This document shows positions 2,613-47,600 of a stretch of DNA of 64,000 nt, piece by piece. A program made the translations under genes and the position numbers. The notes beneath the pieces were generated by a model. The model searched no databases. It was not told where the DNA came from and was given only the letters and a program-made list of their open reading frames with translations. The DNA is taken from IMG/VR virus record IMGVR_UViG_3300017644_000080, one strand, 5' to 3'. Within the stretch, counting starts at the first letter, position 1. Every line of letters starts with the position of its first letter. This stretch comes from a virus.

Positions 2613-3023
2613 CTATCGCTCTTCTACAGCGGTTAGAATTCCAGCCTCAGCGCCATCGACCTCTTTACCATTGCGTTTGGAGGTGATCTTCGGAAGCGGT
2701 TCCAACCCAGCGCGCTCGCGCATCTCTTCAAGGGGGACGATCTCATAGATTTCATCGATGACCTTGCGCCTGCGGTTGCTGAAGTCTGGCAAGAGCGGAG
2801 GCAAGAACCTCAAGACCCGTTTGCAAAACTCGATCAGATACACAAACGGCAACACCATCACAAAAATGATCGCCAACGGCAACATCGTAAATCGCTCGCA
2901 TAACTTGTAGAATGCAGCCTTATCAATCAGATGCCTGATCTCAGGGCAGGCGCGAGCTACCTTGATTTCACGGAAGTAGCCGCGACGGGGAGATACGAAG
3001 CGCCAAGGGAAGAATGGCTTCAT
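2613..3023 (-). CDS. hypothetical small membrane protein (136 aa)
   Basis: Hydrophobic central segment; start overlaps the stop of the upstream metallophosphoesterase by 4 nt (ATGA coupling). Confidence 0.4.
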   Translation of the reverse strand: MKPFFPWRFVSPRRGYFREIKVARACPEIRHLIDKAAFYKLCERFTMLPLAIIFVMVLPFVYLIEFCKRVLRFLPPLLPDFSNRRRKVIDEIYEIVPLEEMRERAGLEPLPKITSKRNGKEVDGAEAGILTAVEER

Positions 3024-3817
3024 CGCTTCCCCCCTTGGAACTGGTAACGAGGATCATCCAGGTCGATGATGAGATCGAACTGATACTCGCGGTTCTCGTT
3101 CACATAACCACGAGGATTGACGACGATATGAGTGTCATGAACCTGGTAGTCGAACGAGTTATGGACGTGACCATGCAGGCACAGATGAGGCCTGTATTCG
3201 TAGATCAGGTCGTCGAGGTTCGAGACGAACGACGAATTCAACGGATCGCCAGCAAACCGTCTGTGCACCGACAGCGGGTGAACGCCATGGTGGGTCACCA
3301 GAACGGTCTTGCCGTCGAACGGTCGAGCCAGCGCTTCCTCGATGAAAGCCCGCGATGCGATGTGCATGTCGAGCAGATGCTTCGGCATCAGGCGGGTATA
3401 CGGCTCCTTCCGATATTTGATCTGGTTGAAGTCGTTCATCGAACCAAGGGCGGACATCATGCCCAAGCCTTGGTCGCCCATGAGCTTGTAATCGGTCCAT
3501 AGCGTCGCGCCAATGAATCGAACGCCGTCGATCACCACCTCGTCGTTTTCAAGGAAGTGAATGTTCGGATACTTCTTGGCAACCTCACGAGCCTCAGCCA
3601 AACCATCGACCAGCGAGCCACGATAATATTCGTGGTTGCCCGCGACATAGATCGTTGGAACGTTGATGTGCTTGGCAATCCATTCGATGCCGCGCGCTGG
3701 AGATTTATTGACCAGATCACCTGTGCACACGCACACGTCCACACCTTCTGGCACCTTAAATCGGTGCGAGATGTCGTCAAATTCCAGGTGCAGATCCGAT
3801 AGCGGCCACAGTTTCAT
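3020..3817 (-). CDS. calcineurin-like metallophosphoesterase (265 aa), paralog of 17188-17997
   Basis: N-terminal LSDLHLE (DxH), GDLV (GD), GNHEYY (GNHE), and C-terminal HGHVH motifs of the calcineurin-like phosphoesterase fold. Confidence 0.8.
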   Translation of the reverse strand: MKLWPLSDLHLEFDDISHRFKVPEGVDVCVCTGDLVNKSPARGIEWIAKHINVPTIYVAGNHEYYRGSLVDGLAEAREVAKKYPNIHFLENDEVVIDGVRFIGATLWTDYKLMGDQGLGMMSALGSMNDFNQIKYRKEPYTRLMPKHLLDMHIASRAFIEEALARPFDGKTVLVTHHGVHPLSVHRRFAGDPLNSSFVSNLDDLIYEYRPHLCLHGHVHNSFDYQVHDTHIVVNPRGYVNENREYQFDLIIDLDDPRYQFQGGKR

Positions 3818-6809: not shown

Positions 6810-9794
6810 TCAGAATTTCAGCTTCAAGCCGACATTGAACGACGTCGCCAGCTTCCCTCCATCAGTAGGAATCTGGACCTCACCACCGTTCACAATCGAA
6901 AGCCTGTCGTTGAAGCTGTACTCGGCATACGATCCCAGAACGACGTTGGTCTTGCCGCGACGTGCGCCTTCCGAGGTGAATTCCGAACCGCTGATCGAGA
7001 GATCACGGCGGGACTTCGTGATGTCATGAGTGACTGCAACCTTGCCATAGAGACCAAGATCGCCCTTCCCGAGCTTGCGTTTGCCGCCGAACTTCACCCC
7101 GACTTCCGGACGGAACAGCTCGGTGCTCGATTTGCCGCTTTCTACGCCGCCAATGCCAGCTTCAGAGAAGGCATCTGTGCGCGAGTGGATGTAGGTCCCG
7201 GCGACGTACGGCGTGACGGTGTAAGCACCGAGCTGCGCGATATCGTAACCGAGTTCGACTTTGCCTGCGAAGACATTACCGCGATAGTCCGTACCCAGCT
7301 GATCGCCGAGACCGAAAATCGAACGAGTGACTTCGAACTTCTGACGCCCGTAAGCGACCTGGCCATTAAGAACCCACTTGTCATGGTTGAGGCCCGCATA
7401 GGCTCCGCCGAAATAGGTGTCGATATGATTGTCATTTGCCTGACCAGACACTTCGACCTTCATCGTATTCCAACCGCCGTAAACGCCAGCGACCAGATCG
7501 CTTGAAATTCGCTTGTCCATGCCGAAAACAACGCCGCCCAGAGCGTAGACAGCGTCTGACGCACCGTTTCTGCCCTTCAGACCGCCTACGCCACCGATGC
7601 CGTCCATCCAGTAGCCAGTCGTCTGATTGCGATCCAGACGAAGCTCATCGAGACGGTTGCTGATGCGGGACATAGGGATGTCAAGCGAGACAAGGCCAGC
7701 CTGCACCATCGACGGATGGACATCGCCTGAAATCTCTTCGAGGGCATTCCTGACTGCTTCGGCAGTGTCGAGCTGTTGAACACCAGCTCCCAGTTTAATC
7801 AGGTCGTTTGAGGCCAGCACAACTGATGTTTCGCCAGTCTTGTCAGCCTGAGATGCGACACTTTTTTCGATCAGCGTGGCAGACTGACAGGCGTTCGAGC
7901 TACCGCAAATGCTGCTCTCAGCAATCGAGGCTACGTCATAGCTGACGACAACATCATTACTCGTCAGATGATAGGCCCCGTTGACGAGATAGGTCGGTCG
8001 GAAATCGAAGCTTCCGAAATTTCCCGTAATCCCGCCCGCAGCAGACATAACGCTCGTCTGCCCATTGCGGACATAGGCATTCTCCACACCATCGATAGCG
8101 AGAAGGCCACCATTGATCGTCGCAGTTCCTGCAACATCGAGTTTGGAGCCGAGTACAACCGACAGCGAGCCGCCATCGTTGACGTAGTTGCCGTTGACCT
8201 TGAGCGTGCCAGTGTAAGGCCAGCCTGCATGCAAGATACCTTTGGAAGTAACATTGCCGAGCTGGCCATCGCCCCCAACGATGCCATTTTCTCCGATGTA
8301 GGTGTTGCCAATGATCAAACCATTTACGACCAGCGCACCATCATTGACGGTGGTCCCGCCCGTGTAGGTGTTGTTTCCAGCCAGTCGAAGAGTGCCATTG
8401 CCGTTCTTCACGAGACCGCCAGCACCGGAGATGTCGTTCTGCCAAACTGAACCGCCAGAAAACGAGACATTGAAGTCACCCCAATCGAATTTGCTAGGTC
8501 CACGAATGGCTTTGGCGACGTCGACCATACCGTAACCGAATACAGGATCGACACCTGGCGCACCGATATCACGCGCAGTACCGAGCAGAACCTGCCCGAT
8601 TTGGTCGCCCTTCATATAAGGAAACGTCTGCTTCACGAGGGCGGCCGACGCCGAGACCACAGGTGCTGCCGCCGATGTGCCCGCAAATAACTGAGAACCG
8701 CTCTCATAGGCATAGGTTGGCATGTCGATATTGACCGGAGCCGCGAGGCAGTATTTTGCGACCGGACCACACTTATTCGAATAACCTGGCATCTCTCCAG
8801 CATCGTTGACGGCAACGACGGTCAGATAACCGCCCGTCTGGAGACGGGAATCTGTGAGCTGCATTGCACCCCAATCACCTGGGTAGTCCTTGGAGTCGTT
8901 GGACGCTGACCAGACAAACAACATACCATGCTGATCGACATATTTGGCTGCTATCTGACGGAAATAATCGATGCCCGCCCCAACGGTACCGCCCTCTGAA
9001 AGGCTCCAACTCTTGGTTCCGATGGAATGGTTCACAATCGACACTCCATCGTTCAGCATGTCGGAATAAATCTGCTCGAATGTGGTATATGAAACGCTTC
9101 CGCCACGATCAAATAAATGGGCCTGAGAAACCTTGGCTCCTGGAGCTATACCGCCAACATAGCCCGCATTATTCTGCCAAGTTGAATCTGCATTTCCGGC
9201 AATAATCATGGAAACGCTGTCGCCATGGTTCGTATTCGTCTCTTGACTATTTTCAACATAATTGCGGAAGGCGACAATCTTGTCCTTCAGATATTTACCT
9301 TCTCCGCTGAAGCCAGTGTCCACGACGCCGACCACAACATTCTGTCCCGTGATACCTCGCGCGTAGGCATCGTGAGCGCCGAGCGTGGCCATCGTCCGCG
9401 ACGTTCTCGTCTTATAAATTACGGGTATCTGATAGGAGGCCTGCCGTGGAATCGGGACGTTCGCTAGGAATGCGCTGGCAGATCGACCGATGCCCTGAAC
9501 TGCAGATGGAATGGCTCGGCCTGGATCACGAAGCGCATCGATAGCCTTGTTTCCTACAACATCGACATATCTGAGCGCGGGAATGTATTTTTCACCGATT
9601 TCAGAGAATGGCGGGTTTTCACCCGGCGGTGGAGGTGGTGGTGTCCATCCTCCACCGCCGCCACCATTGCCAGGGCCGCCGCTGCCAGGATTACTGGGAC
9701 CATCCGAACCGCCACCGCCTCCACAAGCAGTCAGAAACGAGGTCGCCAGCAGAGCTGAGATAAGAAGCGTTTTTCTGATTTTTGAATTATCCAA
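6810..9794 (-). CDS. autotransporter with subtilisin-like (S8) serine protease passenger domain, lipoprotein-type signal (994 aa)
   Basis: N-terminal signal with LTAC lipobox and Gly-rich linker; S8 triad motifs VVGVVDTGF (Asp), HGDSVSMIIAG (His), GTSAAAPVVSASAALV (Ser); Gly-rich repeat passenger; C-terminal ~280-aa beta-barrel-like domain ending ...LKLKF. Confidence 0.85.
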   Translation of the reverse strand: MDNSKIRKTLLISALLATSFLTACGGGGGSDGPSNPGSGGPGNGGGGGGWTPPPPPPGENPPFSEIGEKYIPALRYVDVVGNKAIDALRDPGRAIPSAVQGIGRSASAFLANVPIPRQASYQIPVIYKTRTSRTMATLGAHDAYARGITGQNVVVGVVDTGFSGEGKYLKDKIVAFRNYVENSQETNTNHGDSVSMIIAGNADSTWQNNAGYVGGIAPGAKVSQAHLFDRGGSVSYTTFEQIYSDMLNDGVSIVNHSIGTKSWSLSEGGTVGAGIDYFRQIAAKYVDQHGMLFVWSASNDSKDYPGDWGAMQLTDSRLQTGGYLTVVAVNDAGEMPGYSNKCGPVAKYCLAAPVNIDMPTYAYESGSQLFAGTSAAAPVVSASAALVKQTFPYMKGDQIGQVLLGTARDIGAPGVDPVFGYGMVDVAKAIRGPSKFDWGDFNVSFSGGSVWQNDISGAGGLVKNGNGTLRLAGNNTYTGGTTVNDGALVVNGLIIGNTYIGENGIVGGDGQLGNVTSKGILHAGWPYTGTLKVNGNYVNDGGSLSVVLGSKLDVAGTATINGGLLAIDGVENAYVRNGQTSVMSAAGGITGNFGSFDFRPTYLVNGAYHLTSNDVVVSYDVASIAESSICGSSNACQSATLIEKSVASQADKTGETSVVLASNDLIKLGAGVQQLDTAEAVRNALEEISGDVHPSMVQAGLVSLDIPMSRISNRLDELRLDRNQTTGYWMDGIGGVGGLKGRNGASDAVYALGGVVFGMDKRISSDLVAGVYGGWNTMKVEVSGQANDNHIDTYFGGAYAGLNHDKWVLNGQVAYGRQKFEVTRSIFGLGDQLGTDYRGNVFAGKVELGYDIAQLGAYTVTPYVAGTYIHSRTDAFSEAGIGGVESGKSSTELFRPEVGVKFGGKRKLGKGDLGLYGKVAVTHDITKSRRDLSISGSEFTSEGARRGKTNVVLGSYAEYSFNDRLSIVNGGEVQIPTDGGKLATSFNVGLKLKF

Positions 9795-10137: not shown

Positions 10138-10593
10138 GTGGCCGTAGAAATTGAACGCAAGTTCCTTGTGAAAGACGATAGCTGGAAGGCGCACGTCGTC
10201 AGTAGCTATCACATCATTCAGGGATATCTCGTTGGCGAGCCAACTCTTGCAGTCCGCCTTCGGATTATAGACGACAAGGAAGCCCTTCTGACGATCAAGG
10301 GCAAGGGCGAAGGCATCGCACGTCCTGAATACGAGTACCCAATCCCGCTCGAAGACGCCAAGGGAATGCTGGCAATGTGTGGCACACGCGTGCTTGAGAA
10401 GACGCGCCATCTGATCAATGCCAACGACGGCCTCAAGTGGGAAGTCGATGTGTTCGCTGGTCGGCGCGCTGGTCTCGTTCTTGCAGAGATCGAGTTACCA
10501 AGTCTCGACACCGAGATTGAGCTGCCTGAATGGGCGGGCGAAGACGTGAGCGAGGACCCTCGTTATTTTAACGCAGTGCTGGCATTCACGTGA
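10138..10593 (+). CDS. CYTH-domain protein (CyaB/thiamine-triphosphatase-like), 151 aa
   Basis: N-terminal EIERKFLV motif (ExExK signature of CYTH) and typical size. Confidence 0.75.
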   Translation: MAVEIERKFLVKDDSWKAHVVSSYHIIQGYLVGEPTLAVRLRIIDDKEALLTIKGKGEGIARPEYEYPIPLEDAKGMLAMCGTRVLEKTRHLINANDGLKWEVDVFAGRRAGLVLAEIELPSLDTEIELPEWAGEDVSEDPRYFNAVLAFT

Positions 10594-13125: not shown

Positions 13126-13140
13126 CGTTAGCCAGAACAC

Positions 13141-13172
13141 AAACGGGCACCAATTGGTGCCCGTTTCGTTTC
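13141..13172. terminator. rho-independent terminator between convergent genes
   Basis: AAACGGGCACC-aatt-GGTGCCCGTTT hairpin followed by a T-rich run. Confidence 0.6.
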
Positions 13173-13689
13173 AATCGCTCTGATCTTCCAATTCCGCTTC
13201 CTGTTGAGCCTCGATCAGCACCTTCCGCAGCTTCGGTGACATCATGCTGATCGAAGTGGCTTCAGCCTCTTTGATCCTGTCGCAAATCTCGGCATGCCCC
13301 TTCTCGGCTTCGTCCCAAGTCGAGTAGCGAGCGAGGAGGCCGTAATCATGCTGAAAGTCGAGTTTCTGCTGCTTATCCCCGAGTGCCTGGACCTGTCGCT
13401 CGAACACCATAGTCTCGAAGATATGCGGTGGACCATCGCGAAAAAGATTGTGATCCAAGGACAGGAAGACCGTTGAGATCGTTGAAACGGCCGTGCGTGT
13501 CAGCGCCACCTGCCGATTGGGAGCATCTATACCTTCACCTGGGCCGGGGAAACCTTCCACAGGGACCGCTTCACGCCCAACCAGCTTGTACCACCTGCCT
13601 AGCGGATTCTTATCGTCCATAATCATGTGCAGACCATAGCCGAAGGTTCTGGAGACGCAAAGAGCCTCCCGAAAGAGGCTCCATCGCAA
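13171..13689 (-). CDS. hypothetical protein (172 aa)
   Basis: ORF directly downstream (1 nt) of the 82-aa ORF; last gene of the MazG-like operon before the terminator. Confidence 0.45.
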   Translation of the reverse strand: MRWSLFREALCVSRTFGYGLHMIMDDKNPLGRWYKLVGREAVPVEGFPGPGEGIDAPNRQVALTRTAVSTISTVFLSLDHNLFRDGPPHIFETMVFERQVQALGDKQQKLDFQHDYGLLARYSTWDEAEKGHAEICDRIKEAEATSISMMSPKLRKVLIEAQQEAELEDQSD

Positions 13690-13938
13690 TCAGTTGGCGA
13701 CGGCCAAAGCGGCTAAGGTCTTCTCAAGAGGCTTCCAATGTGGACAAGTCCACTTCGACTTTCGCTCGCGGCCGCTCGGGAGAATTCCGAAATCGCATGA
13801 CGATGGATGATCGACATCGACTACGCAGCGCGACGGTTTTTCGCCCTCGTCGTATTCGACAAAGCACAGATGTCGAACTCCATTCTTGTAATCGGACTGA
13901 TCATCCGCATAAACTGTGCTCTTTAAATCTTCTTCCAT
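13690..13938 (-). CDS. small Cys-containing hypothetical protein (82 aa)
   Basis: Four spaced Cys (C..C...C..C) could form a small Zn-binding module; no family recognised. Confidence 0.3.
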   Translation of the reverse strand: MEEDLKSTVYADDQSDYKNGVRHLCFVEYDEGEKPSRCVVDVDHPSSCDFGILPSGRERKSKWTCPHWKPLEKTLAALAVAN

Positions 13939-13976
13939 AAACCGAACTCCTTTTAATTGCCTTAATTAAAGAAATT

Positions 13977-14540
13977 CTAATTATTGTCAATATTTTTTTG
14001 GCTACTGGAAATAGCAATAGAAAATCTCGGTTCCGCGATCCCCGTTCCGCAGGTCCACTCGTAACCCTTATATTTACGCGAGCTATATGAACCCACTTCG
14101 ACGCCGTCTATCTCAAGATCGTAGCCAATTCCAGTCGGAACGATGTCAGGAGATATTCCGGAAATTTCCGTCATAAATGTTCGAGCATCGAGAGCAATCT
14201 CGAAATCCCTGCCATCGTAGGCATTCGTATCAAACAGCTCGACCTTCATGAAATATGGATGATGCGTAGCGTCAAAAACAGGTTCCTTGCGGAAACAAGG
14301 CGTCAGAGACACGAACTTCCCCTGCCCCAGTGTGCCGTTCATCAGGGCATCGACAAACGACTGTTCCGCAGACCCGACCAAAAGACCAAGATCGCGCAGT
14401 TCATAGGCGCGGCCGAGATCATCCAGTGTCGACTGAATACCGTCAAGGCTCGCATGCCACGGGAGATTTACCCTCTTGTAGTCCCGCGCCTCATACCATT
14501 GAAGCGCGGCGACAAGATATTCCCAATTAACGGCGACCAT
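13977..14540 (-). CDS. mini class-II aminoacyl-tRNA-synthetase-like catalytic core (SerRS-like), ~187 aa
   Basis: LTPCFRKEP...HHPYFMKVELF resembles SerRS motif 2 (TPCFRSEAGS...HQFNKVELV, as in the SerRS in this same window); GTGIAEPRFSIAI resembles motif 3 (GSGVAVGRLLIAI); start taken at the internal Met MVAVN that overlaps the upstream gene's stop by 14 nt; the 54-codon N-terminal extension in the ORF track is read-through of the upstream gene. Confidence 0.4.
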   Translation of the reverse strand: MVAVNWEYLVAALQWYEARDYKRVNLPWHASLDGIQSTLDDLGRAYELRDLGLLVGSAEQSFVDALMNGTLGQGKFVSLTPCFRKEPVFDATHHPYFMKVELFDTNAYDGRDFEIALDARTFMTEISGISPDIVPTGIGYDLEIDGVEVGSYSSRKYKGYEWTCGTGIAEPRFSIAISSSQKNIDNN

Positions 14541-15345
14541 TCGCAAATGCCCTCGCAGTGACCGCTGCCATCTCGCGCAGGCTCTGAAGCGAGATCGATG
14601 GATGATGCTTATCGAGATAGGCTTCAATAGCGCCCTGAAGATCAGCCAGCTCCACCAGAGCCATGATATCCACGCCCTGATTGATCGCATCCATGAACTC
14701 ATTGACCTCTTCCATGATCTTCGAAGGCTCGCCTAGAACGCCCTTCTCGATCTCGGCCAGGTGATATCCCGGCTTCGACTTCTTCGGCAGGAGGTCAGTG
14801 ATGTAATCCCAAAGGGTGTCAGCATCGATCTTGCGCTCGAACGGACAAATAGACGGACCATTCACTTCGCGAATGACGTTCGCCAGATCCTTGATGATCG
14901 GGCCGCGCTCCAGATAGGTGATCGCCTTCGTGGCACGGATGCGGTGGAAACCAGTTTCAGCGAACTCGTAACTGGTGCCAGCGCTCATGTGATAGGTGCT
15001 GCCCTGACGCAGGAAGCCGCGTGCTACCGGAACAGGGTCTTTGCTATCGCCAGGCTTACAGGACACCTGAACGATCTCGTGGTCGCCTTCAGGCGAGTTT
15101 TCCAGAAACCACTCTTCATGGGTGATGTTGCCGAGGAGAATATGAGAGTGGAACCGATATCGATGATCGTGGAGTTCCTCTTCCGGCGTGTCGGCCAGCA
15201 ACTCAGGATGCCAGAAGTGAATTCGGGTGTCCTTGGTGAGTTTCAGCTGGATAAATCCGAGACCGAACCAGTGTGGTGAGGATCCGAAAGAACGCAGGTA
15301 GTCGACGTCCAGAAATTGATCCAGACGGCCGTTAAAAATGCCCAT
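14527..15345 (-). CDS. two-domain protein: N-terminal His-rich domain of unknown function + C-terminal MazG-like NTP pyrophosphohydrolase domain (272 aa)
   Basis: C-terminal EEVNEFMDAI ... ELADLQGAIEAY matches the all-alpha MazG/HisE pyrophosphohydrolase signature; N-terminal HFWHP...HDHRYRFHSH cluster suggests a metal site (cupin or oxygenase-like?) but no family recognised. Confidence 0.55.
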   Translation of the reverse strand: MGIFNGRLDQFLDVDYLRSFGSSPHWFGLGFIQLKLTKDTRIHFWHPELLADTPEEELHDHRYRFHSHILLGNITHEEWFLENSPEGDHEIVQVSCKPGDSKDPVPVARGFLRQGSTYHMSAGTSYEFAETGFHRIRATKAITYLERGPIIKDLANVIREVNGPSICPFERKIDADTLWDYITDLLPKKSKPGYHLAEIEKGVLGEPSKIMEEVNEFMDAINQGVDIMALVELADLQGAIEAYLDKHHPSISLQSLREMAAVTARAFANGRR

Positions 15346-15493
15346 AGCGAGACCTCTTTTTATTGGAATTCATGTCCTATGGGAGGACTTATTTTCTGGA
15401 TCGTCAACCTGATCTTCGGATTAATTATGCCAACAATATCTACAAAAAGGGCCTCAAGATTATCTCCGAGGCCCCAACTCTCAAAAATACAGT

Positions 15494-16072
15494 TCAATAC
15501 ATGCCATTGCCAAGGGACGCAGCAGCATATTCCTCACCTTCAGCACCATTTTGGGTCACTTCGTTGATCTGGGCGACCACGTCTGAGAAGAGACCGACAT
15601 TGTCCGTTTTCAGGGCTACTTCGAGATTGTTGTAGATTTGCTGAAGCATGTTGAGATTCGCTGCATCCGAATTATCCAAGCCAGCAACCTCAAGGTTATA
15701 AGGTGCAACGATGTTCAGGTTGTCTTTCACGTCCTGAATATGCTGCTTCATCGAAGCCGCAAGTTCGATAGCGCCGTTAACATCGCCGTCTTCCAGCATG
15801 TCACTGAGGTGCCAGTAATTTTCATTCAGTGTTGCGAACTCACCTTCGACAAGGTCGTTCCTCATATTTACGGATTGCTCGTAGGCAACAATGACCGGAT
15901 CATTTTGAAGATTCACAGTGGTTTCGCCGCTATTGACGTAGAGCGCGCCAGTGAGTGCGGCGGCTGTTACAGCGGCGGTGAAGAGCCTGTTCTCAGTGGC
16001 TTCGGCCATCCATTCAGACAGTTTTGACATGGTTTTCTCCCAATTCTCTGATGAATTATTGGGCACCGGCAT
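15494..16072 (-). CDS. probable exported protein, paralog A (MSKLxxWM family)
   Basis: Internal Met MSKLSEWMAEATENRLFTAAVTAAALTGALYV parallels the N-terminus of the protein at 16599-17129; hydrophobic signal-like segment. Confidence 0.45.
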   Translation of the reverse strand: MPVPNNSSENWEKTMSKLSEWMAEATENRLFTAAVTAAALTGALYVNSGETTVNLQNDPVIVAYEQSVNMRNDLVEGEFATLNENYWHLSDMLEDGDVNGAIELAASMKQHIQDVKDNLNIVAPYNLEVAGLDNSDAANLNMLQQIYNNLEVALKTDNVGLFSDVVAQINEVTQNGAEGEEYAAASLGNGMY

Positions 16073-16598: not shown

Positions 16599-17129
16599 TC
16601 ACCGTCCCATGGAAGGCAACGGCTCCATCTCTTCCGAGATGTCAAATCGTTGCTTATCTTCCAAGGCGACATAGAGGTTCATCACGGCAGTTTCGATTTT
16701 GCCCTGGTCCTTTGATGCCAAGGCAGGCTCAAGAGCATCCAACGCCTGATAGAAGTCGACGTGAACACCATCAACTTTGGCCGTCATTTCGATCCCGTAC
16801 TGCATCGTCGCAGGCAAACGCGCTCCTACGTTACGGACATGCTCAAAGAAATCACGTCCGTATTTCCGAGCTTCCTCAGTTTTGCCCTGGAGAAGCATCG
16901 TACGAAGGCGGCTATAATGCGCTGGGAACATTCTGATCTGTTCCTGAGCCAGACTGTCAGCCTGTTCCATTGACGCAGCGACCTTAGCCAGTTCGGTTGG
17001 ATGATCAGTCATGCCCATGTAGTGCTTGACGCCATCGGTCGTGACATTAAGGGCCGCCAAAACACCAAGAGACATAACGAAGGTCTTGTTGGAGATTTCC
17101 TTTTCCATCCAGTCTTTTAATTTCGACAT
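16599..17129 (-). CDS. probable exported protein, paralog B (MSKLxxWM family), 176 aa
   Basis: MSKLKDWMEKEISNKTFVMSLGVLAALNV N-terminus is homologous to paralog A; similar length. Confidence 0.45.
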   Translation of the reverse strand: MSKLKDWMEKEISNKTFVMSLGVLAALNVTTDGVKHYMGMTDHPTELAKVAASMEQADSLAQEQIRMFPAHYSRLRTMLLQGKTEEARKYGRDFFEHVRNVGARLPATMQYGIEMTAKVDGVHVDFYQALDALEPALASKDQGKIETAVMNLYVALEDKQRFDISEEMEPLPSMGR

Positions 17130-17187: not shown

Positions 17188-17997
17188 TCAGATTTCGATT
17201 ACTTTTCCGAACTCGAACCCTTCATTTTCAATGGCATAGCCGCGTGGATTGCAGACAATGCGTGTCTTGCCTACCATATAATCAAACTGCTGATGCACAT
17301 GACCATGCACCCAAAGATCAGGCTGTCGCCTCTCGATTAAATCCGACAAATCGGACACGAACGCCCCATTGGTAGCGTCACCTTCGAACTTCGGGTGAAG
17401 CGATTTCCGATGCGGAGCATGATGGCTCACCACAACTGTTTTGCCATCGTGCGGAACAGCCAAGGTGTCGTCGATGAAAGCCCTCGTTTCCTGATGCAGC
17501 TGCACGAGGTCAGCAGGCCTGATGTGACGTGGGATAACCCCGTCCCCTTTGGGTGTCTGCAGGTAGATGTTGACGTAGTCTGCCAACCCATTCTTTGCGG
17601 CCCACATGGCGCTCTTGATCGCGGTCTCACGCTCATCTCCAGAGGCTGGAGCATCGATTGCGAAGTCCGTCCACAACGTACCGCCCAGGAAACGCACACC
17701 ATCGATAACTGCGGCGCTATTGTCGAGGAAGGTCACACCCTGCGCGTTTGCGATGAGCTTGGCGTTCTTGCGGCCGCCTTCGATAGATGTGTCATAGAAC
17801 TCGTGATTGCCAGGCACCCAAACAACAGGCATTCGAGGCCGGATTACGTTGCCAACCCAATTGACCCCTAGATGCATGGAATCTGTGACGTCGCCAGCCA
17901 ACACGCAAACATCGGCTTGCGGGTATCGATCCGGCTTCACGAGCTTAATCGCATCGCTCTCGGGAATATGTAAGTCGGACAAAATCCAAATACGCAT
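17188..17997 (-). CDS. calcineurin-like metallophosphoesterase (269 aa), paralog of 3020-3817
   Basis: ILSDLHIPE, AGDVTD, PGNHEFY, HGHVH motifs; N-terminus MRIWILSDLH closely parallels MKLWPLSDLH of the first copy. Confidence 0.8.
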   Translation of the reverse strand: MRIWILSDLHIPESDAIKLVKPDRYPQADVCVLAGDVTDSMHLGVNWVGNVIRPRMPVVWVPGNHEFYDTSIEGGRKNAKLIANAQGVTFLDNSAAVIDGVRFLGGTLWTDFAIDAPASGDERETAIKSAMWAAKNGLADYVNIYLQTPKGDGVIPRHIRPADLVQLHQETRAFIDDTLAVPHDGKTVVVSHHAPHRKSLHPKFEGDATNGAFVSDLSDLIERRQPDLWVHGHVHQQFDYMVGKTRIVCNPRGYAIENEGFEFGKVIEI

Positions 17998-29191: not shown

Positions 29192-30709
29192 CTAGGCCAC
29201 CATCGGTGACGGGGTTGCATCGAAGTGGTCATAAACCGCTTCCGGATTGTTGCTGTCCCAAGGCACGAAGATGCCTCGATCATATCCTGCCCGTTCGGCG
29301 ACGAGATCGACCTGCAGATGAGCAACCTTCTTGATGCCCTGCTGATTGATCGCAAACACAGTGCCTTCCTGCGGCAGGCTGACCTGCTCGACGCCATTGC
29401 TGAGCGCGATATCGGCATGGGCTTCCATGTGGCGATCTTCACCATGAACGGGGATCGCAAAGCGCGGACGAACGATCTCATACATGGCGGCGATCTCGTT
29501 CCCGACAGCGTGGCCAGTCACGTGAAGCGGGGAACCGCGATATTCCTTTTCAAGGATACGAACTTGCTTGGAGCGGAGCGTATCGAAGATGGAATAGAGA
29601 TCCTCTTCGTTGCCGGGGATGACGCGAGCCGAGTGAACGACGGTATCGGTATGATGCACAGCCGGAAGCCGGAAATTCTCACCAGCCGCATATTTGGCAA
29701 GAGCCGCATTCTGTTCGCCTTGCGCGCCCGTGCAGATCAAAACCATTTCACGACGATCCAAGCCTCGCAGATGCGATGGCTCCTTCAGGAAAGGCATGAC
29801 GCCATCCATCAGGCCAAGATCGCGTGCGATCTCTTCGTTGCGGCGCAGAGAACGACCAGCAAGTGCAACCTGGCGGCCTGTGGCGGCTGCTGCACGGCCG
29901 ATGGAAGCGACACGGGCAATGTTGGTAGCAAAGCAGCTCACGACACAGAGGCCCTGAGCCTTCTTGAATACCTTCGCCATGCCAGTGGCGACATCGCGCT
30001 CCGAAGTGACCGAACCCTGCCGATCAGCATTAGTGCTGTCGCAGATCATGGCGAGAACGCCTTCGTCACCCAGCGCCTGAAGCGCCTTCATGTTGGTCGG
30101 ACGACCAACAACTGGATGCGGATCGAATTTCCAGTCACCCGTATGGAAGACCTTGCCGACAGGCGTATCGAATACGAGGCCAACGCATTCCGGCACCGAG
30201 TGCGTCATGCGGATCGTATCGATATACATGTTGCCGACCCTCAGCCTGTTCCCAGGCTGGAACTGGCGCATCTTCACGCGGCCCAGCGTTCCGGCTTCAG
30301 CGAAACGACTCTGGAGAACCTTGGTAGCAAACGGGGTTGCGTAGATCGGGCATTTGATCGTTGGCCAAAGGCGATGAACGGCACCGATATGGTCTTCATG
30401 AGCATGCGTAACCACGAGACCAGAAAGCCTCGGCAGAACATCTTTCAGGGAATTCAAATCAGGGAAAATGGCGTCGACGCCATCAATGTCACGAGGAGCG
30501 AAAGCCGATCCTGCGTCTACAAGAACCCACTCGCCATCGTAGCCATAGAGGGTCCAGTTCATTCCGATCTGTCCAGTACCGCCTACGGTGCACACGAGAA
30601 TTGAATCTCGTCCTGGGATCGGAAGCTTCGTTGGTGAATCATTCGACTTCGGATTTAATAATTCGACTTTTAGCTGGGATTTACCCAAAACATCTTCTTT
30701 TTCTTTCAT
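29192..30709 (-). CDS. rnj: RNase J-family metallo-beta-lactamase / beta-CASP ribonuclease (~505 aa)
   Basis: VVTHAHEDHIGAV (HxHxDH metallo-beta-lactamase motif II); N-terminal VGGTGQIGMNWTLYGYDGEW resembles the RNase J start; start placed at the internal Met MKEKED (the ORF track extends to 30766). Confidence 0.75.
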   Translation of the reverse strand: MKEKEDVLGKSQLKVELLNPKSNDSPTKLPIPGRDSILVCTVGGTGQIGMNWTLYGYDGEWVLVDAGSAFAPRDIDGVDAIFPDLNSLKDVLPRLSGLVVTHAHEDHIGAVHRLWPTIKCPIYATPFATKVLQSRFAEAGTLGRVKMRQFQPGNRLRVGNMYIDTIRMTHSVPECVGLVFDTPVGKVFHTGDWKFDPHPVVGRPTNMKALQALGDEGVLAMICDSTNADRQGSVTSERDVATGMAKVFKKAQGLCVVSCFATNIARVASIGRAAAATGRQVALAGRSLRRNEEIARDLGLMDGVMPFLKEPSHLRGLDRREMVLICTGAQGEQNAALAKYAAGENFRLPAVHHTDTVVHSARVIPGNEEDLYSIFDTLRSKQVRILEKEYRGSPLHVTGHAVGNEIAAMYEIVRPRFAIPVHGEDRHMEAHADIALSNGVEQVSLPQEGTVFAINQQGIKKVAHLQVDLVAERAGYDRGIFVPWDSNNPEAVYDHFDATPSPMVA

Positions 30710-30813
30710 GCTCTTTCTTTTCCACTTAATTAATCCAAATGTCAATTCAGAGCACGCATGAAACAATAAAAATAAGAAAGCGGGCTATCGTTGTTGCATA
30801 GATGCCGCACTGG

Positions 30814-41583: not shown

Positions 41584-42020
41584 TCGCGTTGTTTCCTTTC
41601 AACAATTTCGTTTTCAGAGCATTCGATTGCCTGAGATATTTCAGATCGCCAATCGAACTCCCTCGGCGCATCACGCCTTTTTCTAAATGTCAGGTAATTT
41701 ATCCGCCCTTTAATGTCAACATATTTTCACGTATTTATAGCCCCTTCCCGAATAAATCTCCTTTAATTATTCTCTTTCGCTTTCTTGCCGATTTAGGCTG
41801 ATCGCAAGTCCTTGAATTTAAAGCCCCAAAAAGCCTCATATGCGGAAATAATTGCCGATCCGTGCTGCCGATTGCCCAGTATTCCTCCTTTATTTAAACA
41901 TGTCCCGAATTCGAAAGGAGGTTGCGGAGTCGAACAAAATCATTTACTCGTCAACAAATTTAATTGAAACTCAAATGGAGTTCAGATATCTGACCCATAT
42001 TGGAAAAGGCAGATTTACGC
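41584..42020. promoter_or_regulatory. long AT-rich divergent intergenic region
   Basis: About 430 bp between divergent TelA-like and AddB-like genes; contains short direct repeats (TTGCCGAT x2) near 41780-41880. Confidence 0.35.
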
Positions 42021-44687
42021 ATGACGAAAGCAATTAATGGGCTTAGTTTTCGAAAAACCATTTTGGTCAATGGCCGTCTGGCACTGCGCACCGAACGACT
42101 GCGCCTAGCCCGAGAACAGGTCAGCGGAACTCAGGTAATGGCTATTGAACATTTCGCCGAGCGTCTCGCTGGCGGTTTTCTGCGAATGGTCGACACCCGC
42201 ACGCTCAAGGAAATTATCGGTAAAGTTCTTCCTGAAACCGATATTGGCGAGCTTGAACCAATCAAGAATCTGCCGGGGATGACATCGGCGGCAGCTGACA
42301 CCCTCATGAAAATGTGGCTCGCGCGCCCAGATATTGACGCCATCAAGGATCACAAGCGCATCCAGGCAATTCTTTCGCTTGAAAAAGCTGTCGTTGCCGC
42401 CCTTCCCGCTCACATGAAGCGGCCAAATGACATCATCGAGATCGCAATCACACGTGCTCATCACGCTCCGTCCATTTTTGGCGATGTGACTATTAGCGGT
42501 ATGACCGAACTTCATCCGGTCTGGCGTCCTCTGATCACTGAGGTGTCCAAGCACATCAACATCGAATGGAACGCTGGTCCGCGAGAGGTCTCGCCTTGGA
42601 TTGAGGAAGCGATGAAGGTAAGGCGCTCTGAGCCTAAGACACCAGAAGTCCAATCATATATCTGCGGCACCGCGCTTCACGAAGTCATAGAGTCAGTGCG
42701 TTGGGCGCGTAAGCTGATGTCGGAAGGCGTATTGCCCCGTGATATCGCTATCGCAAGCGTTTCAACGACTGCTTATGACGAACACATGCTGGCGGTCTGC
42801 TCTGACAGCAAGCTCGGCATTCATTTCGCTCACGGCATTTCCTGCGTCCATCGCATCGAAGGTCAGGCGGCAAGCGCTCTTGCCGATATTTTGCTACGTG
42901 GTCTCTCACAGAAGCGCGTCCAACGTCTTCTCGATCTCCTGCAGGGACTTGGTTCGGAAGCCGTAAAAGGCCTTCCTGGCGACTGGAGCCGTAACTTCCG
43001 ACCAGATGCCGCACTCACCGAACTGCCTCGTTGGGAAAAAACGCTGAATAGCAAGCCGTATCTCGCTGAACTCAAGAATATCCTGCTTCCTATCCTGACG
43101 CTCGTCTCCAAGGGCATCGAGGTTGCAGCGGAAGCAGGAGAAAAGCTGTTTCATGGTCAAGCAAAGAAGATTTGGGACGCCGCGCTTCTTGAAGGTCCCG
43201 CCGCCGCACTCGACCGCACAATTCCAATGCAGCGCATTGATGATGGCGAAGACCCTCACTCGTCTGCATGTTTCATGTCTGCTGAAAAGCTAGCTGCGTC
43301 GCCGCGTCCATATGTTCGTCTGATTGGCCTCACGTCCCGCGACTGGCCACGTCAGTCCGGCGAAGACGCATTGATCCCTGACTACATCATTCCATCGAAC
43401 ATCCTCGATCCTATGCCGCGCTCGGATATCGACCGTCGCGATTACAATACGATCAAGGCAACGACTGAAAAACTGCTCGTCCTTTCGTGGCCGCGACGTG
43501 ATGCTGAAAGCCGTCAGCTGGGCGTCAGCCGTCTGGTTACGCAGATCGAGCGCGACAACGGCAAGCCTATTCAGCTTACTGATCGTCCAGATCACGCTTT
43601 CTCGGAAGCCGACCGCCTGTTTGCCCGCGACAAGGAATACGCGACATCCCCGCACGCAATTTCGGCTGCTACTTGCTGGAAGAATTGGCGCTCCAAGGAT
43701 CTGACTGCACATGATGGTCTGATCGCCCCCAGCCATCCACGCATCCAAGACGTCTTCGACCAGTACCATTCCGCCACGTCTATTCGCCTGCTTCTGCGCG
43801 ATCCGATTGGCTTTGTATGGCGATATGCGCTTGGATTCAGCGCCCCTGAATATGAAGACGCTCCTCTGTTTGCCGATGCCCGCGAGTTCGGCAACATCGT
43901 CCACGACATTCTCAAGCAGACTGTCGACCAGCTGATCCGCAAGGGCGGCTTCGCAAATGCCTCGCCAGAGGACATTTCTCGCACGATTGACGAACAGTCG
44001 ATCAATGTAGGTATGCGCGTCGAAATGTCGAAGCCGATCCCGCCAAAGCTGATCTGGTTCGGCATGATGGAGCGTGCCACCAAATTCGCAAAAGCGGCAC
44101 TGCTGAGCGAGATTGAAAGATATCCAGATCAGGTGACGTACGCGGAAGTTCCGTTCGGCGGCAAGATTGAGCTGAAAGAGGAATCTTTCCCGTGGGACAT
44201 CGAGCAGGAAGTCACAATTCCTGGGACGGGCCTGAAGCTACAGGGCATCATTGACCGTCTGGATTTTTCCACGTCTACGCCGAAGGCTCGCGTTATCGAT
44301 TACAAGTCGGGCAAGACCCCGAAAAACATCGACGACCTCATCATCGGTGGTGGCAACGAAATCCAGCGCGCCATCTACGGCTTCGTCGTGAAGTCGCTGA
44401 TGGGTGGCAATGCTGAGGTTGAGACTGGCCTGCTTTATCCGGAAACCGGAACCTTCGCAATGCTGGAAGAACCGGATGAAGTGTTGGCACAGGTCGCCAA
44501 TGGAGTGCTGATCGCCAAGGAATCTCTAGAGCGCGGTAACGCGATCCCCGGCATCGGCACCAGTGAAGCATACAACGACATGCGTTTTGCGCTGCCAGCA
44601 AACGCCGCAGCAACCTATCTGCTGCGCAAAAACCAGACGTTCCTTGATCGTATCGGTGAAGCGGCAGAGATTTGGGAGCACAAATAA
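42021..44687 (+). CDS. addB: AddB-like nuclease subunit (PD-(D/E)xK) of a two-gene helicase-nuclease, ~889 aa
   Basis: C-terminal GIIDRLDFSTST...RVIDYKSGK matches the RecB-family nuclease motif; no N-terminal Walker A; stop 1 nt before the AddA-like start. Confidence 0.6.
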   Translation: MTKAINGLSFRKTILVNGRLALRTERLRLAREQVSGTQVMAIEHFAERLAGGFLRMVDTRTLKEIIGKVLPETDIGELEPIKNLPGMTSAAADTLMKMWLARPDIDAIKDHKRIQAILSLEKAVVAALPAHMKRPNDIIEIAITRAHHAPSIFGDVTISGMTELHPVWRPLITEVSKHINIEWNAGPREVSPWIEEAMKVRRSEPKTPEVQSYICGTALHEVIESVRWARKLMSEGVLPRDIAIASVSTTAYDEHMLAVCSDSKLGIHFAHGISCVHRIEGQAASALADILLRGLSQKRVQRLLDLLQGLGSEAVKGLPGDWSRNFRPDAALTELPRWEKTLNSKPYLAELKNILLPILTLVSKGIEVAAEAGEKLFHGQAKKIWDAALLEGPAAALDRTIPMQRIDDGEDPHSSACFMSAEKLAASPRPYVRLIGLTSRDWPRQSGEDALIPDYIIPSNILDPMPRSDIDRRDYNTIKATTEKLLVLSWPRRDAESRQLGVSRLVTQIERDNGKPIQLTDRPDHAFSEADRLFARDKEYATSPHAISAATCWKNWRSKDLTAHDGLIAPSHPRIQDVFDQYHSATSIRLLLRDPIGFVWRYALGFSAPEYEDAPLFADAREFGNIVHDILKQTVDQLIRKGGFANASPEDISRTIDEQSINVGMRVEMSKPIPPKLIWFGMMERATKFAKAALLSEIERYPDQVTYAEVPFGGKIELKEESFPWDIEQEVTIPGTGLKLQGIIDRLDFSTSTPKARVIDYKSGKTPKNIDDLIIGGGNEIQRAIYGFVVKSLMGGNAEVETGLLYPETGTFAMLEEPDEVLAQVANGVLIAKESLERGNAIPGIGTSEAYNDMRFALPANAAATYLLRKNQTFLDRIGEAAEIWEHK

Positions 44688-44688
44688 T

Positions 44689-47600
44689 ATGCTGAATGAC
44701 TCGACAGCTCGCCGTACGGCCCTTCTTGAAATCAATCGCACCCTCATGGTTGAGGCGGGCGCTGGATCGGGCAAGACATCGCTCATGGCAGGCCGCATCA
44801 TTTCGATGCTCGCCAACGGCGTTCACCCTCGCGACATCGCAGCTGTGTCCTTTACGGAAATGGCCGCAGCGGAATTGATGGGCCGCGTCAGTGATACGAT
44901 TGACGACGTTCTGAAAGGCACGCCTCCGGCCGACCTTCGCGCATCCTACGATGGCGGAAATATCGATCCCGAAGGCCAGGCCAAACTGCAGGAAGCGCAG
45001 CATCACCTCGGTGAAATGACCTGCACGACCATCCACGGTTTCTGCAAGCGCCTTCTGAAGCCTTATCCCGTTGAAGCCGACATCGATCCAGGCGCGGCGA
45101 TCCTCGACGCTACGCAGGCCTCACTTCTGTTCGAAGATGTGTTCAACGAATGGATTCGTGAGCGTCTCAACAGTGAGGACTATCACAAGGACATCATCAC
45201 TGAGATGGTGGCCACCCATTCCGACACAAAGGAAGCTATCGAAACGATCCGCCGTCTCGCAGACCAGCTTCGCGGTTCGCCAGACCTCTTCCTTCACAAG
45301 CAGGAATTTGACCTTGCACCTGCCAATCAACTGATTGATCAGATCGAGAAATACGAAAAATGGATCGCAGGCCTTGGCTTTGAAGCCGAAGGTAATGAGG
45401 ACATTCGTGCGGACTTCGCGCAACTGCGAAAAGAGCTGCGCGCCGCCATGGGACTGCCCAAGCATCAGGCCCTGATGAACATCATCCGGCTGAAGCTATC
45501 CTCGTCCGTTCTCAAGGTCGATGGAGGTTTCCGCGTCTACAAGATGAAGGGCAAGTGGCAGGCCGCCGCTCCTTCGAAAAAGGTCGGCGAAGACTGCAAC
45601 ACGGAAGCGACCGAACGCTATAACGAGATTGCCGCTGGCTACGAAGCTCTGAAGACCATGGCTGCGTCAGCCGCCCTCACGATCCTTGAGAGCGAAATTC
45701 GCCCGATGCTTGATCGCTATCGCGACCGTAAGCGTCAGGGTGCCGCCCTAGACTTCGAGGACCTGCTCGTCGCCACCCGTCAGCTCCTGCAGAACTATCC
45801 CGAGATCGCCAAGGCTCTTGGCCAGCGCTACAAGCACGTGCTCGTCGACGAATTTCAGGACACCGATCCGGTCCAGACCGAAATCTTCAAACACCTCTGC
45901 TTCGACCGCGATGCCGATGGCGAATGGGTCCCGCGTCCAGGCGCGATCTTCCTTGTGGGTGACCCCAAGCAGGGCATCTATCGCTTCCGTGGCGCAGACG
46001 TGAAGACCTATCTGGATATGCGCAACCTTCTCGAAAAGCACGACTCGACGTCGATCCTGAAGATTTCGACGAACTTTCGTTCGAGCAAAGGCATTCTGGA
46101 TTACGTAAACGACGTCTTTGACGTTCCGTTGAGCGCTCCCTCACAGCCAGGCTTTACCGCACTCGATCCATTCCGGCAGGACACCAGCAAACACCCGTCT
46201 GTGGCGACGATAAAGATTGGCGAACTGGATAACATTGCCGAGACACGTGACGAAGAAGCCCGTCAGATTGCAGAAATGGCGCGCAGGCTGATCAACACCT
46301 TCCCCGTCTTCGACAAGAAACTCGGTGCTACCCGCCCATGCAAACCGTCTGACATAGCTCTACTCGCGCCTACTGGCTCCGATCTGTGGCGCTACGAACA
46401 TGCCCTTGAAGAAGAAGGCATCTCTGTCGCCACGCAGGCTGGCAAGGGCATGTTCCAGCGTCAGGAAGTTCAGGACATGATTGCGATCACTCGCGTCCTG
46501 GCCGATCCGCGTGACCACCTTGCTCTCGGTGCTCTCCTGCGCGGGCCGCTGGTGGGCATGACAGAAACTGAGCTTCTCGATGCAGCCCACGGTCTTCCAA
46601 AGTTGGAAGACGGCGGACTTGCTCATCTGCACGTTGGTATCGACACAGGCCTGATCAAGAACCCTGTGCTCAAGACGGTGCTGGCCCAGCTGAATGCGCT
46701 TCGCAATTCTGGCAAATACACGACACCCTATGATGTCCTTTCCAGCGCCGTCGATGTGCTCAATGTTCGGGCGACTGTGAAGGCTCGCCATTCGAAGTCG
46801 CCCCACCGTGCTCTTGCCAACGTCGACCGCTTCCTCGAAATGAGCCGTCCTTACACAACCCGTGGCCTGCGCGCGTTCTCAGACGAAGTCCGCTCACTCT
46901 GGGAGGATGGCGAACGCATCGCCGAAGCACATCCAGACGGTGAAGATCAGTCGGTCTCCATCATCACCATGCACTCTTCCAAGGGACTGGAGTGGCCTGT
47001 GGTTTTCGTCATCAACACGATGACCGAAATCATGCGTTCCAAGCCTCTGGTCGTCGACGTCAGCTCGCGGCAAATCTCGATGCCGTTCTTTGGCTTCCAG
47101 CCAAACGGCTATAGCGAACTGAAGCAAATCTCAGATCAGGAGTCCCACAACGAGCGCGTTCGCCTGCTTTATGTGGCCACCACCCGTGCTCGCGACCTTC
47201 TCGTTGTCCCTGTGCATGAGAAGACTACCGAAAGGCAGTGGGCAACGGTTACGGACCTGAAGTTGCAGGACATCCAAACGATGGAGCTGGAAGGCTTCTC
47301 GAACGCGATGCGCGTGCAGCGCGACGTCACCGTTAACAATCAGGATGCGAAGACTTTCGCCGAGCAGACCGCTGCAATCCTCGCGGCCAAGAAGCCTGTC
47401 ATCAACAAGACCCCTTCCCGTCACGAAAGCCATGCATCGAGTTTGCGGATTTCGCTTGATGACCTGATTGACGCCGAACCAGTCGCCGATCCTTCCGAAT
47501 TCGTCCAGGGCAGTGCTGAACGCGGCGTTGTCATGCACAAGCTGATGGAAGAAATCCTGACTGGCGAACTGACAGACAATGAACCAGAGATCGAAAACCG

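Follow-up and report, generated by a model that had tools for sequence, protein, structure and literature searches.

A minimal class-II core derived from SerRS and a probable MazG/HisE-like domain form a widespread, mostly phage-borne two-part system

What does a seryl-tRNA synthetase-like protein of 187 amino acids (aa) do in a genome which also encodes a complete seryl-tRNA synthetase (SerRS)? This question is raised by a locus on the minus strand of the record IMGVR_UViG_3300017644_000080, of which a stretch of 64,000 nt, called the window here, was analyzed. The locus comprises four genes in the order A, B, C and D. Gene A (14527-15345, 272 aa) encodes a cupin domain joined to a probable MazG/HisE-like domain, designated mazC, and gene B (13977-14540, 187 aa) encodes a minimal class-II core derived from SerRS. 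An earlier note on this DNA had described the two genes by short peptide strings. All of these are present at their coordinates on the minus strand, namely HFWHP, HDHRYRFHSH, EEVNEFMDAI and ELADLQGAIEAY in gene A as well as TPCFRKEP, FMKVELF and GTGIAEPR in gene B. The mini-synthetase and mazC were found to be a unit, which constitutes a widespread and mostly phage-borne two-part system.

Gene B starts with an ATG at position 14540 (MVAVNWEY) and ends with a stop codon at 13977. Pfam gave only sub-threshold class-II matches (tRNA-synt_2, E 0.02), and when A and B were each searched as single sequences, no PDB chain was matched. PHROG 4806, which is labeled 'histidyl tRNA synthetase', matches gene B from end to end (E 9e-41). 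With a profile of the gene B family, PDB sequences of SerRS were found first (2dq3 with E 8.5e-8, followed by 14 more SerRS entries) and those of PylRS after them. The best matches are standard bacterial and archaeal SerRS (2dq3, 2dq0, 6hdz), and the hidden Markov model (HMM) of the family also detects the full SerRS of the window. Since the profile matches SerRS and then PylRS, not HisRS, the 'histidyl' label used by PHROG and RefSeq is unsupported, and a reading of gene B as HisZ or HisRS was rejected.

An alignment of 53 homologues of gene B with identities of 33-92% contains the strictly invariant blocks VGSAEQSF, TPCFRxE, YFMKVEL, D.E..G.EVGSY and YGTGLAEPRFS. The three class-II motifs can be recognized as GYxxxxVP(W) for motif 1, TPCFR84xE...F97xK99xE101 for motif 2 and G165-T166-G167-x-A169-x-P171-R172 for motif 3. 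Invariant residues are S57, A58, E59 and Q60, P81, C82 and R84, F97, K99 and E101, D141, E148, G150 and S151, as well as T166, G167, A169, P171 and R172. An AlphaFold2 model calculated from this alignment (pLDDT 95.7, pTM 0.90) consists of seven beta strands with flanking helices. A Foldseek search with the model against the PDB resulted in 611 matches with E<=0.001, the top 50 of which are all catalytic domains of PylRS or SerRS. The top matches reach E ~2e-9 with TMq 0.59-0.71 and include the PylSc-type cores 3dsq and 6jp2. Gene B is a class-II catalytic core derived from SerRS and without a tRNA-binding arm. The earlier note had suggested such a core, close in its motifs to the SerRS of the window, and the suggestion is borne out by the profile match, the predicted fold with its PylRS and SerRS relatives, and the missing arm. 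Given the profile and fold matches, the likeness of the motifs is no accident. Judged by its conserved residues, the core looks catalytically competent.

The full SerRS of the window is encoded at 51904-53196 (minus strand) and carries the motifs TPCFRSEAGS, FNKVELV and GSGVAVGR. Gene B was aligned with this protein and with E. coli SerRS using MAFFT, and its identity to SerRS is 17-20%. Residues S57-A58-E59 of B align with T237-A-E239 of the E. coli enzyme, R84 with the motif-2 residue Arg268, E101 with E291 of FDKVE, and T166 and R172 with S391 and R397 of NGSGLAVGR. The correspondence of E148 and S151 to E355 and S358 of REISS comes from a re-reading of one hairpin by eye, which MAFFT had placed one strand earlier. 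The aligned positions in SerRS are taken by us to be those which hold ATP/Mg and the seryl moiety. Gene B starts at motif 1, so that the first ~180 residues of SerRS have no counterpart in the alignment, and Seryl_tRNA_N, the Pfam family for the tRNA-binding coiled-coil arm at the N-terminus, was not matched by gene B. The motif-2 loop, which in SerRS touches the acceptor stem, is 6 residues shorter in B than in the E. coli and window enzymes, and one beta-hairpin insertion is reduced according to the alignment as re-read by eye.

To which gene this core is linked was analyzed in a set of 114 neighborhoods, consisting of 26 loci from reference genomes, 80 loci from viral contigs, annotated phages and relatives of the window. 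The loci were drawn from phages, Candidate Phyla Radiation (CPR) bacteria, DPANN archaea and the alphaproteobacterial lineage of the window, and their open reading frames (ORFs) were scanned with HMMs for the mini-synthetase, mazC and cupin domains. In 108 of the 114 loci mazC adjoins the mini-synthetase or is fused to it. It is a separate upstream gene on the same strand in 91 loci and lies downstream in 3. In 42 of the 91 loci, mazC ends at or beyond the projected start of the synthetase, and in 56 the distance is <=30 nt. Fusions with the synthetase followed by mazC occur in 14 loci, including those of DPANN archaea, a Woesebacteria genome and the Microcystis phage Ma-LMM01 (gp131), and the reverse order in a single chain was found in P0356. 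Fusions and adjacency are Rosetta-stone evidence for a joint function of mazC and the mini-synthetase. The cupin was found in only 16 of the 114 loci, where it forms cupN-mazC or mazC-cupN (locus L029) or is encoded by a gene of its own which lies between the other two (L092). All-against-all clustering of the neighbors in the 114 loci showed no universal third gene and no recurrent carrier protein.

In an exhaustive profile search (E<=1e-30) the family proved to be large, comprising at least 1,211 clusters at the 50% identity level. The mini-synthetase is present in 276 records of isolated phages. Carriers are phi92-like and rV5-like phages of E. coli, T4-like phages of Acinetobacter and Morganella, jumbo phages of Caulobacter and Brevundimonas, Ma-LMM01-like phages of Microcystis, phages of Erythrobacter and Citromicrobium, and metagenomic megaphages. 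Genomes which carry it include those of Saccharibacteria, Woesebacteria, Nanoarchaeota, Woesearchaeota, the lineage of the window and a metagenome-assembled genome of the Bacteriovoracaceae.

The mazC domain (14530-14778, minus strand) covers residues 190-272 of gene A and thus has a length of 83 residues. PHROG 6408 matches residues 191-272 (E 1e-32) and PHROG 4784 matches residues 27-186 (E 9e-14); these two, like PHROG 4806, are uncharacterized clusters. For gene A, more than 180 full-length homologues were found. In 53 of its homologues the invariant residues of the C-terminal part are G193-Y-H195, K209, E212, E213, E216, E232, D235, T263, R265, F267 and R272. They form the motif E213-x-x-E216, followed after 15 residues by E232-x-x-D235 (EXXE-15-EXXD), and a C-terminal T..RAF..G.R. 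The acidic residues of this motif, the lysine, GYH and the C-terminal arginine are also invariant in 61 diverse copies of mazC. The spacing fits the MazG/HisE signature EXXE-(12-28)-EXXD, and 41 of the 61 family members match the Pfam family PRA-PH (best E 2.6e-5) and 10 match MazG. On these motifs and matches, mazC probably belongs to the MazG/HisE superfamily of all-alpha nucleoside triphosphate (NTP) pyrophosphohydrolases. The MazG/HisE-type C-terminus proposed in the earlier note is therefore probably right, and the acidic residues expected as metal ligands (E212, E213, E216, E232 and D235) are conserved throughout the 53 homologues.

The N-terminal part of gene A (14788-15288, minus strand; about residues 20-186) is a cupin domain, i.e., a double-stranded beta-helix barrel. 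In the AlphaFold2 model of gene A (pLDDT 92.7) a beta-barrel of about residues 25-160 is followed by helices at 207-223, 226-247 and 253-268, and fold searches with this two-domain model returned cupin matches only. The invariant residues in the same 53 homologues are H43, H59, H61, R62, Y63, C96 and H134. H59-D-H61 together with H134 corresponds to the cupin metal motif HxH...H, so that the domain probably holds a metal site with three histidines. Gene A is matched by 286 records of Pseudomonas phages, and in the ones which were inspected the alignment is limited to the cupin part (residues 28-186). The inspected phages (~66 kb), which we take to be PB1-like, carry a stand-alone cupin gene (PHROG 4784), and no mazC match was seen in them. 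The search with the mini-synthetase lists no comparable number of Pseudomonas records.

Genes A and B overlap by 14 nt (14527-14540), the stop codon TAA of A (14527-14529) lying inside B. This overlap, reported in the earlier note, is confirmed and is identical in two relatives of the window, L003 (93% identity) and L004 (53% identity). Both its presence and its conservation are consistent with coupled expression of the two genes, which the earlier note had assumed. A GAGGG element resembling a Shine-Dalgarno sequence lies ~10 nt upstream of the ATG of gene B. The gene preceding A is closed by a hairpin resembling an intrinsic terminator (15448-15475, minus strand; 10-bp stem with 6 GC pairs and a T-run), and therefore gene A opens a new transcription unit.

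Genes C and D follow on the same strand. Gene C (13690-13938) encodes 82 aa with four cysteines and has its own ribosome-binding site AAAGGAG. Gene D (13171-13626) encodes 151 aa if it starts at the ATG at 13626, or 172 aa (13171-13689) from an upstream TTG. The ATG is probably the start, as it is the one used in the closest relative, L003. Two further hairpins can be read from the sequence of this strand, one of 7 bp between C and D (13662-13681) and one of 9 bp with a T-rich tail after D (~13136-13164). Neither gene has a family match in Pfam, NCBIfam or PHROG. Homologues of C occur only in L003/L008, and those of C and D together are confined to the 93%-identical relative and were found in none of the ~110 other loci. 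Because of this, the two small proteins do not complete a conserved operon, as the earlier note had it, and gene C is a co-transcribed neighbor outside the conserved module. From the operon described there, the pair of mazC and synthetase is conserved, and C and D are not.

Clues to the function of the pair come from its neighbors in other genomes. Of the 80 viral loci, 21 have tRNA genes within <=6 kb; at least three tRNAs are present in 13 of these, and one has a transfer-messenger RNA (tmRNA). In L043, L045, L048, L065, L067, L069, L096, L100, L111 and L112 the pair is embedded in phage tRNA arrays or borders on them; these arrays have up to 18 tRNAs within 12 kb and, in L043, the tmRNA. 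In L103, one tRNA has the amber suppressor anticodon CUA. Several of the arrays beside the pair contain a tRNA-Ser. A mazC domain is fused to an RF-1/PrfH-like peptidyl-tRNA-hydrolase domain on a viral contig (L089:5306-5989), directly upstream of the mini-synthetase and with genes for tRNA-Ser, tRNA-Met and tRNA-Gln 3-4 kb upstream. In phages of Caulobacter and others, the synthetase is fused to helix-hairpin-helix (HhH) domains of the RNAP-alphaCTD type, a YqeY-like protein is encoded downstream of the pair in a phi92-like phage, and EF-Tu and a SpoU methylase adjoin it in L004. Furthermore, the RNA-repair nucleotidyltransferase RlaP is encoded close to the pair in 7 loci, which represent at least three lineages. 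According to a 2025 preprint (PMC12776372), this enzyme attaches one or two nucleoside monophosphates (NMPs) to damaged 3′ ends of RNA and restores the function of tRNA.

A different group of neighbors is connected to nucleotide metabolism. Large and small subunits of ribonucleotide reductase (RNR) and a deoxynucleoside monophosphate (dNMP) kinase were found in 12-15 loci, NrdD and NrdG near the pair in a phi92-like phage, and MazG genes, ThyX and dNMP kinase near the pair in phage RXM. In CPR and DPANN genomes, genes resembling P-loop nucleoside kinases (10 loci; AAA_28 in 7, PRK/Udk-like in 3) and, in 5 loci, a gene for a small radical-SAM protein (~225 aa) overlap the pair and form apparent operons with it. 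For these partners (L024:6816-7481, L025:6791-7474, L025:5466-5996, L027:5040-5696 and L017:6552-7730) no close solved relative was found. The AAA_28 neighbor weakly resembles the kinase domain of NadR (E 0.065), and the small radical-SAM protein from DPANN matches neither QueE nor NrdG in the PDB. A link to 7-deazaguanine DNA by way of 'Campylobacter phages' was dropped, as the single record examined (A150) fits phi92-like E. coli phages.

The observations comprise the predicted folds, the conservation of the catalytic residues, the overlapping frames and the fact that mazC and the synthetase nearly always lie side by side or are fused, with fusions in more than one order. Our leading interpretation of them, which we hold tentatively and at rather less than even confidence, is that A and B form an obligate two-part enzyme of aminoacyl-adenylate and nucleotide chemistry which acts on a non-canonical acceptor. 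B would bind a small alpha-amino acid, for which serine is the likeliest candidate, together with ATP and form the aminoacyl-adenylate. It would partner obligately with the mazC domain of A, probably as a physical complex. The metal site of mazC formed by EXXE...EXXD would bind an NTP-like substrate and release pyrophosphate, and the acceptor handled in this way could be either a nucleotide or a tRNA-like RNA, the latter at its 3′ end. As to the order of the steps, we infer that an NTP derivative is converted to an NMP derivative and pyrophosphate before an ATP-dependent aminoacylation takes place. The fused cupin would add an optional metal-dependent step, probably that of an oxygenase or isomerase. 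A non-canonical acceptor for the activated amino acid is suggested because B has no tRNA arm and a shorter motif-2 loop and because a full SerRS is encoded in the window.

In a more specific version, the pair would be an unrecognized enzyme for the aminoacylation of nucleotides or nucleic acids. Here mazC would make the monophosphate of a (d)NTP or a modified NTP, and the core would esterify or amidate this nucleotide, or the end of a tRNA or other RNA, with serine, in some lineages after hydroxylation by the cupin. We regard this version as unlikely; the idea of nucleotide modification as such remains a live option. To our knowledge, no modified base is described for phages carrying the pair. 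If this version were true, the reaction would yield either an aminoacylated nucleotide used in the hypermodification of phage DNA or RNA, or a new tRNA modification, and gene B would be the smallest natural active class-II synthetase.

Several points weigh against a two-part enzyme with a non-canonical acceptor. The mazC copy of the window itself stays below the Pfam cut-off for PRA-PH (E 0.034; 15 bits vs 21.3), and the mazC profile reaches PRA-PH among PDB sequences only at E 0.65. Alignments of this profile by hhalign with single sequences of E. coli HisI and MazG were uninformative, and the model of mazC shows three helices instead of the classical four-helix unit. The roles assigned to the SerRS residues come from known SerRS structures and from an alignment partly re-read by eye (EVGS vs REISS), and conserved serine-binding residues would be expected equally of a true SerRS. 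Neither the signals from tRNA genes nor those from nucleotide metabolism extend beyond a minority of the loci, and their numbers are raw counts, uncorrected for relatedness or against a whole-genome null. Finally, full-text searches of the literature found no characterization of the pair.

The main rival, which we rate as rather unlikely, is a minimal split SerRS for translation, in which B would charge tRNA-Ser or a phage-specific tRNA and mazC would replace the arm as a subunit for tRNA binding or regulation, in the manner of PylSn and PylSc. The invariant residues aligned with the serine- and ATP-binding positions of SerRS would suit this explanation, as would the PylSc-type cores among the top structural matches and the gene order of mazC before synthetase, which mimics that of arm before core. 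It is also favored by the tRNA genes beside 21 of 80 viral loci with tRNA-Ser in several arrays, by the HhH, YqeY-like and RF-1 domains and RlaP found as fusions or neighbors, and by EF-Tu and the SpoU methylase next to the pair in L004. With many phage copies in tRNA arrays or beside domains of RNA repair or translation, the view of the earlier note that the locus resembles ligases or modification pathways 'rather than translation' is not established. However, a complete SerRS is already present in the window, and a motif-2 loop shortened by 6 residues, 17-20% identity to SerRS and strictly conserved motifs specific to the family speak against this explanation. The partner, moreover, has an invariant acidic cluster of the metal/NTP type, which makes a poor RNA-binding surface, and in the 14 fusions it is located C-terminally to the core, unlike the N-terminal arm. 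That B is instead a regulatory pseudo-synthetase without catalysis, which like HisZ or SLIMP would bind an amino acid or nucleotide and modulate its partner, is very doubtful. The label 'histidyl tRNA synthetase' recalls HisZ, and the partner resembles HisE, but every canonical catalytic residue in motif 2 and motif 3, as well as the glutamate that binds the metal, is invariant in the 53 aligned sequences of B, which would not be expected of a pseudo-enzyme, and the profile matches SerRS, not HisRS or HisZ.

Two further explanations keep B catalytic and assign it other products. As class-II synthetases are established to make Ap4A from aminoacyl-AMP and ATP without tRNA, and MazG-type enzymes cleave alpha-beta phosphoanhydride bonds, the tRNA-free core could make molecules of the Ap4N type or RNA caps, which mazC would hydrolyze or limit. 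The tight pairing and fusion of a synthetase and a hydrolase do recall the enzyme pairs of signaling. We consider such a dinucleoside-polyphosphate or alarmone module improbable: the present data do not bear on it directly, no sensor or effector gene recurs and PADLOC gave no match, and the conservation of positions binding the side chain, such as T166, would be unexplained. The likeness to amino-acid:carrier-protein ligases or small-molecule pathways, which the earlier note had raised, would mean that B loads an amino acid onto a carrier or a small metabolite and would make C and D members of the pathway. It draws on B being an arm-less SerRS-like core, as the known ligases are, and on C being a small cysteine-containing protein in the same transcription unit. 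This likeness was not borne out, and we give the explanation hardly any weight. A pathway of carrier proteins or secondary metabolites was rejected because C and D, without family matches and restricted to one close relative, are not conserved and because no carrier-like or other third gene recurs in the 114 loci. In addition, B appears to group with the bacterial-type SerRS by its TPCFR motif, whereas the known ligases are derivatives of the methanogen-type zinc SerRS.

The window itself is part of a cellular genome. It encodes, besides the full SerRS, an AddAB-like nuclease-helicase (42000-47991, plus strand), an RNase J (29192-30766, minus strand) and a subtilase autotransporter of the Peptidase_S8 family with 994 aa, a PATR repeat and a beta-barrel domain (6810-9794, minus strand). 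The SerRS is of the alphaproteobacterial type and shows 58% identity to the SerRS of Azospirillum and Sinorhizobium. The GC content of the window is ~51%, and many of the larger ORFs scanned have no Pfam match. No known plasmid was matched by megablast or by tblastn against plasmids, and no tRNA genes were found within the window. Rfam searches upstream of the pair, in the window and in 12 cellular loci, detected neither a riboswitch nor any other RNA element. PADLOC found no defense system, and NCBIfam gave no match to a curated family.

The locus is flanked by two paralogous calcineurin-like phosphoesterases (3020-3817 and 17188-17997, both minus strand) and a CYTH protein (10138-10593, plus strand). 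In the metagenomic relative L004 the orthologous pair lies amid the same genes together with the SpoU methylase, a Band_7 protein, EF-Tu and a radical-SAM protein. The flanking set shared with L004 has a flavor of RNA repair or RNA processing, but it may simply be due to shared ancestry. The neighbors at 15494-16072 and 16599-17129 (both minus strand) encode 192 and 176 aa, respectively, and resemble paralogs, with an N-terminal MSKL..W, a hydrophobic segment and a helical remainder. One of them has a weak YqaH-like match.

Truncated paralogs of aminoacyl-tRNA synthetases have repeatedly shown unexpected chemistry, such as the lysylation of EF-P, the formation of glutamyl-queuosine, the loading of carrier proteins and the synthesis of asparagine. 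The present family is labeled in databases only as 'histidyl/seryl-tRNA synthetase' or 'hypothetical', its members are routinely counted among the 'tRNA synthetases' of phages, and phage genome papers merely list the genes as 'SerRS' next to 'MazG'. Correcting this annotation matters. The almost obligate association of the core with a MazG/HisE-like domain, as a pair or by fusion, is a clear and testable clue of which no description was found, and the family is carried by tractable phages (phi92-like and rV5-like phages of E. coli, T4-like phages of Acinetobacter, jumbo phages of Caulobacter). With ~180 residues the core is close in size to the minimal class-II 'urzyme' constructs used in the debate on the origin of aminoacylation, and a natural active core of this size would therefore be of interest to that field. 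A synthetase paralog with a non-canonical function is a known phenomenon; the partnership with a MazG-like domain and the natural core of ~180 residues are, as far as we can tell, new.

Among known proteins, bacterial-type SerRS (class IIa) shares with gene B the motifs 1-3 (TPCFRxE, (F/Y)xKVE, ExxS, G(S/T)GxAxxR) and the core fold, but it has ~430 aa instead of 187, a coiled-coil arm, a longer motif-2 loop and no constant MazG-like partner. The amino-acid:carrier-protein ligases (Bll0957, Atu2573) are proteins of ~300 aa which originate from the zinc-dependent methanogen-type SerRS and are encoded beside a carrier-protein gene. They are arm-less SerRS homologues like gene B and form an aminoacyl-adenylate for transfer to a non-tRNA acceptor, whereas the core of B appears to be of the bacterial type, has ~180 aa and lacks a recurrent carrier gene. 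GluQRS (YadB) and EpmA (PoxA/GenX) are likewise truncated synthetase paralogs. They keep the adenylate chemistry and use unusual acceptors, i.e., queuosine in tRNA-Asp and Lys34 of EF-P, respectively. In contrast to gene B, the core of GluQRS is that of GluRS (class I) and the core of EpmA is of the LysRS type, and neither is paired with a MazG-like protein.

The split PylRS (PylSc and PylSn) resembles the pair in having a compact class-II core with a small partner encoded separately, but PylSn is a tRNA-binding domain, whereas mazC has an acidic motif of the NTP-pyrophosphatase type. In MazZ-PurZ of Z-genome phages and gp56-gp42-gp1 of T4, an NTP pyrophosphohydrolase of the MazG superfamily is encoded beside an enzyme which then modifies the NMP; PurZ uses an amino acid and ATP for this. 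Both resemble the pair in this neighborhood of a pyrophosphohydrolase-type gene and a second enzyme, located in phage clusters for nucleotide metabolism with kinases and RNR. PurZ, unlike gene B, is a homologue of adenylosuccinate synthetase and does not have the class-II fold, and the comparison serves as a working analogy only. By descent, SerRS is the closest relative of gene B, and as a concept the arm-less paralogs, i.e., the amino-acid:carrier-protein ligases, GluQRS and EpmA, seem closest, while the closest working analogy for the pair is probably offered by MazZ-PurZ and gp56-gp42-gp1.

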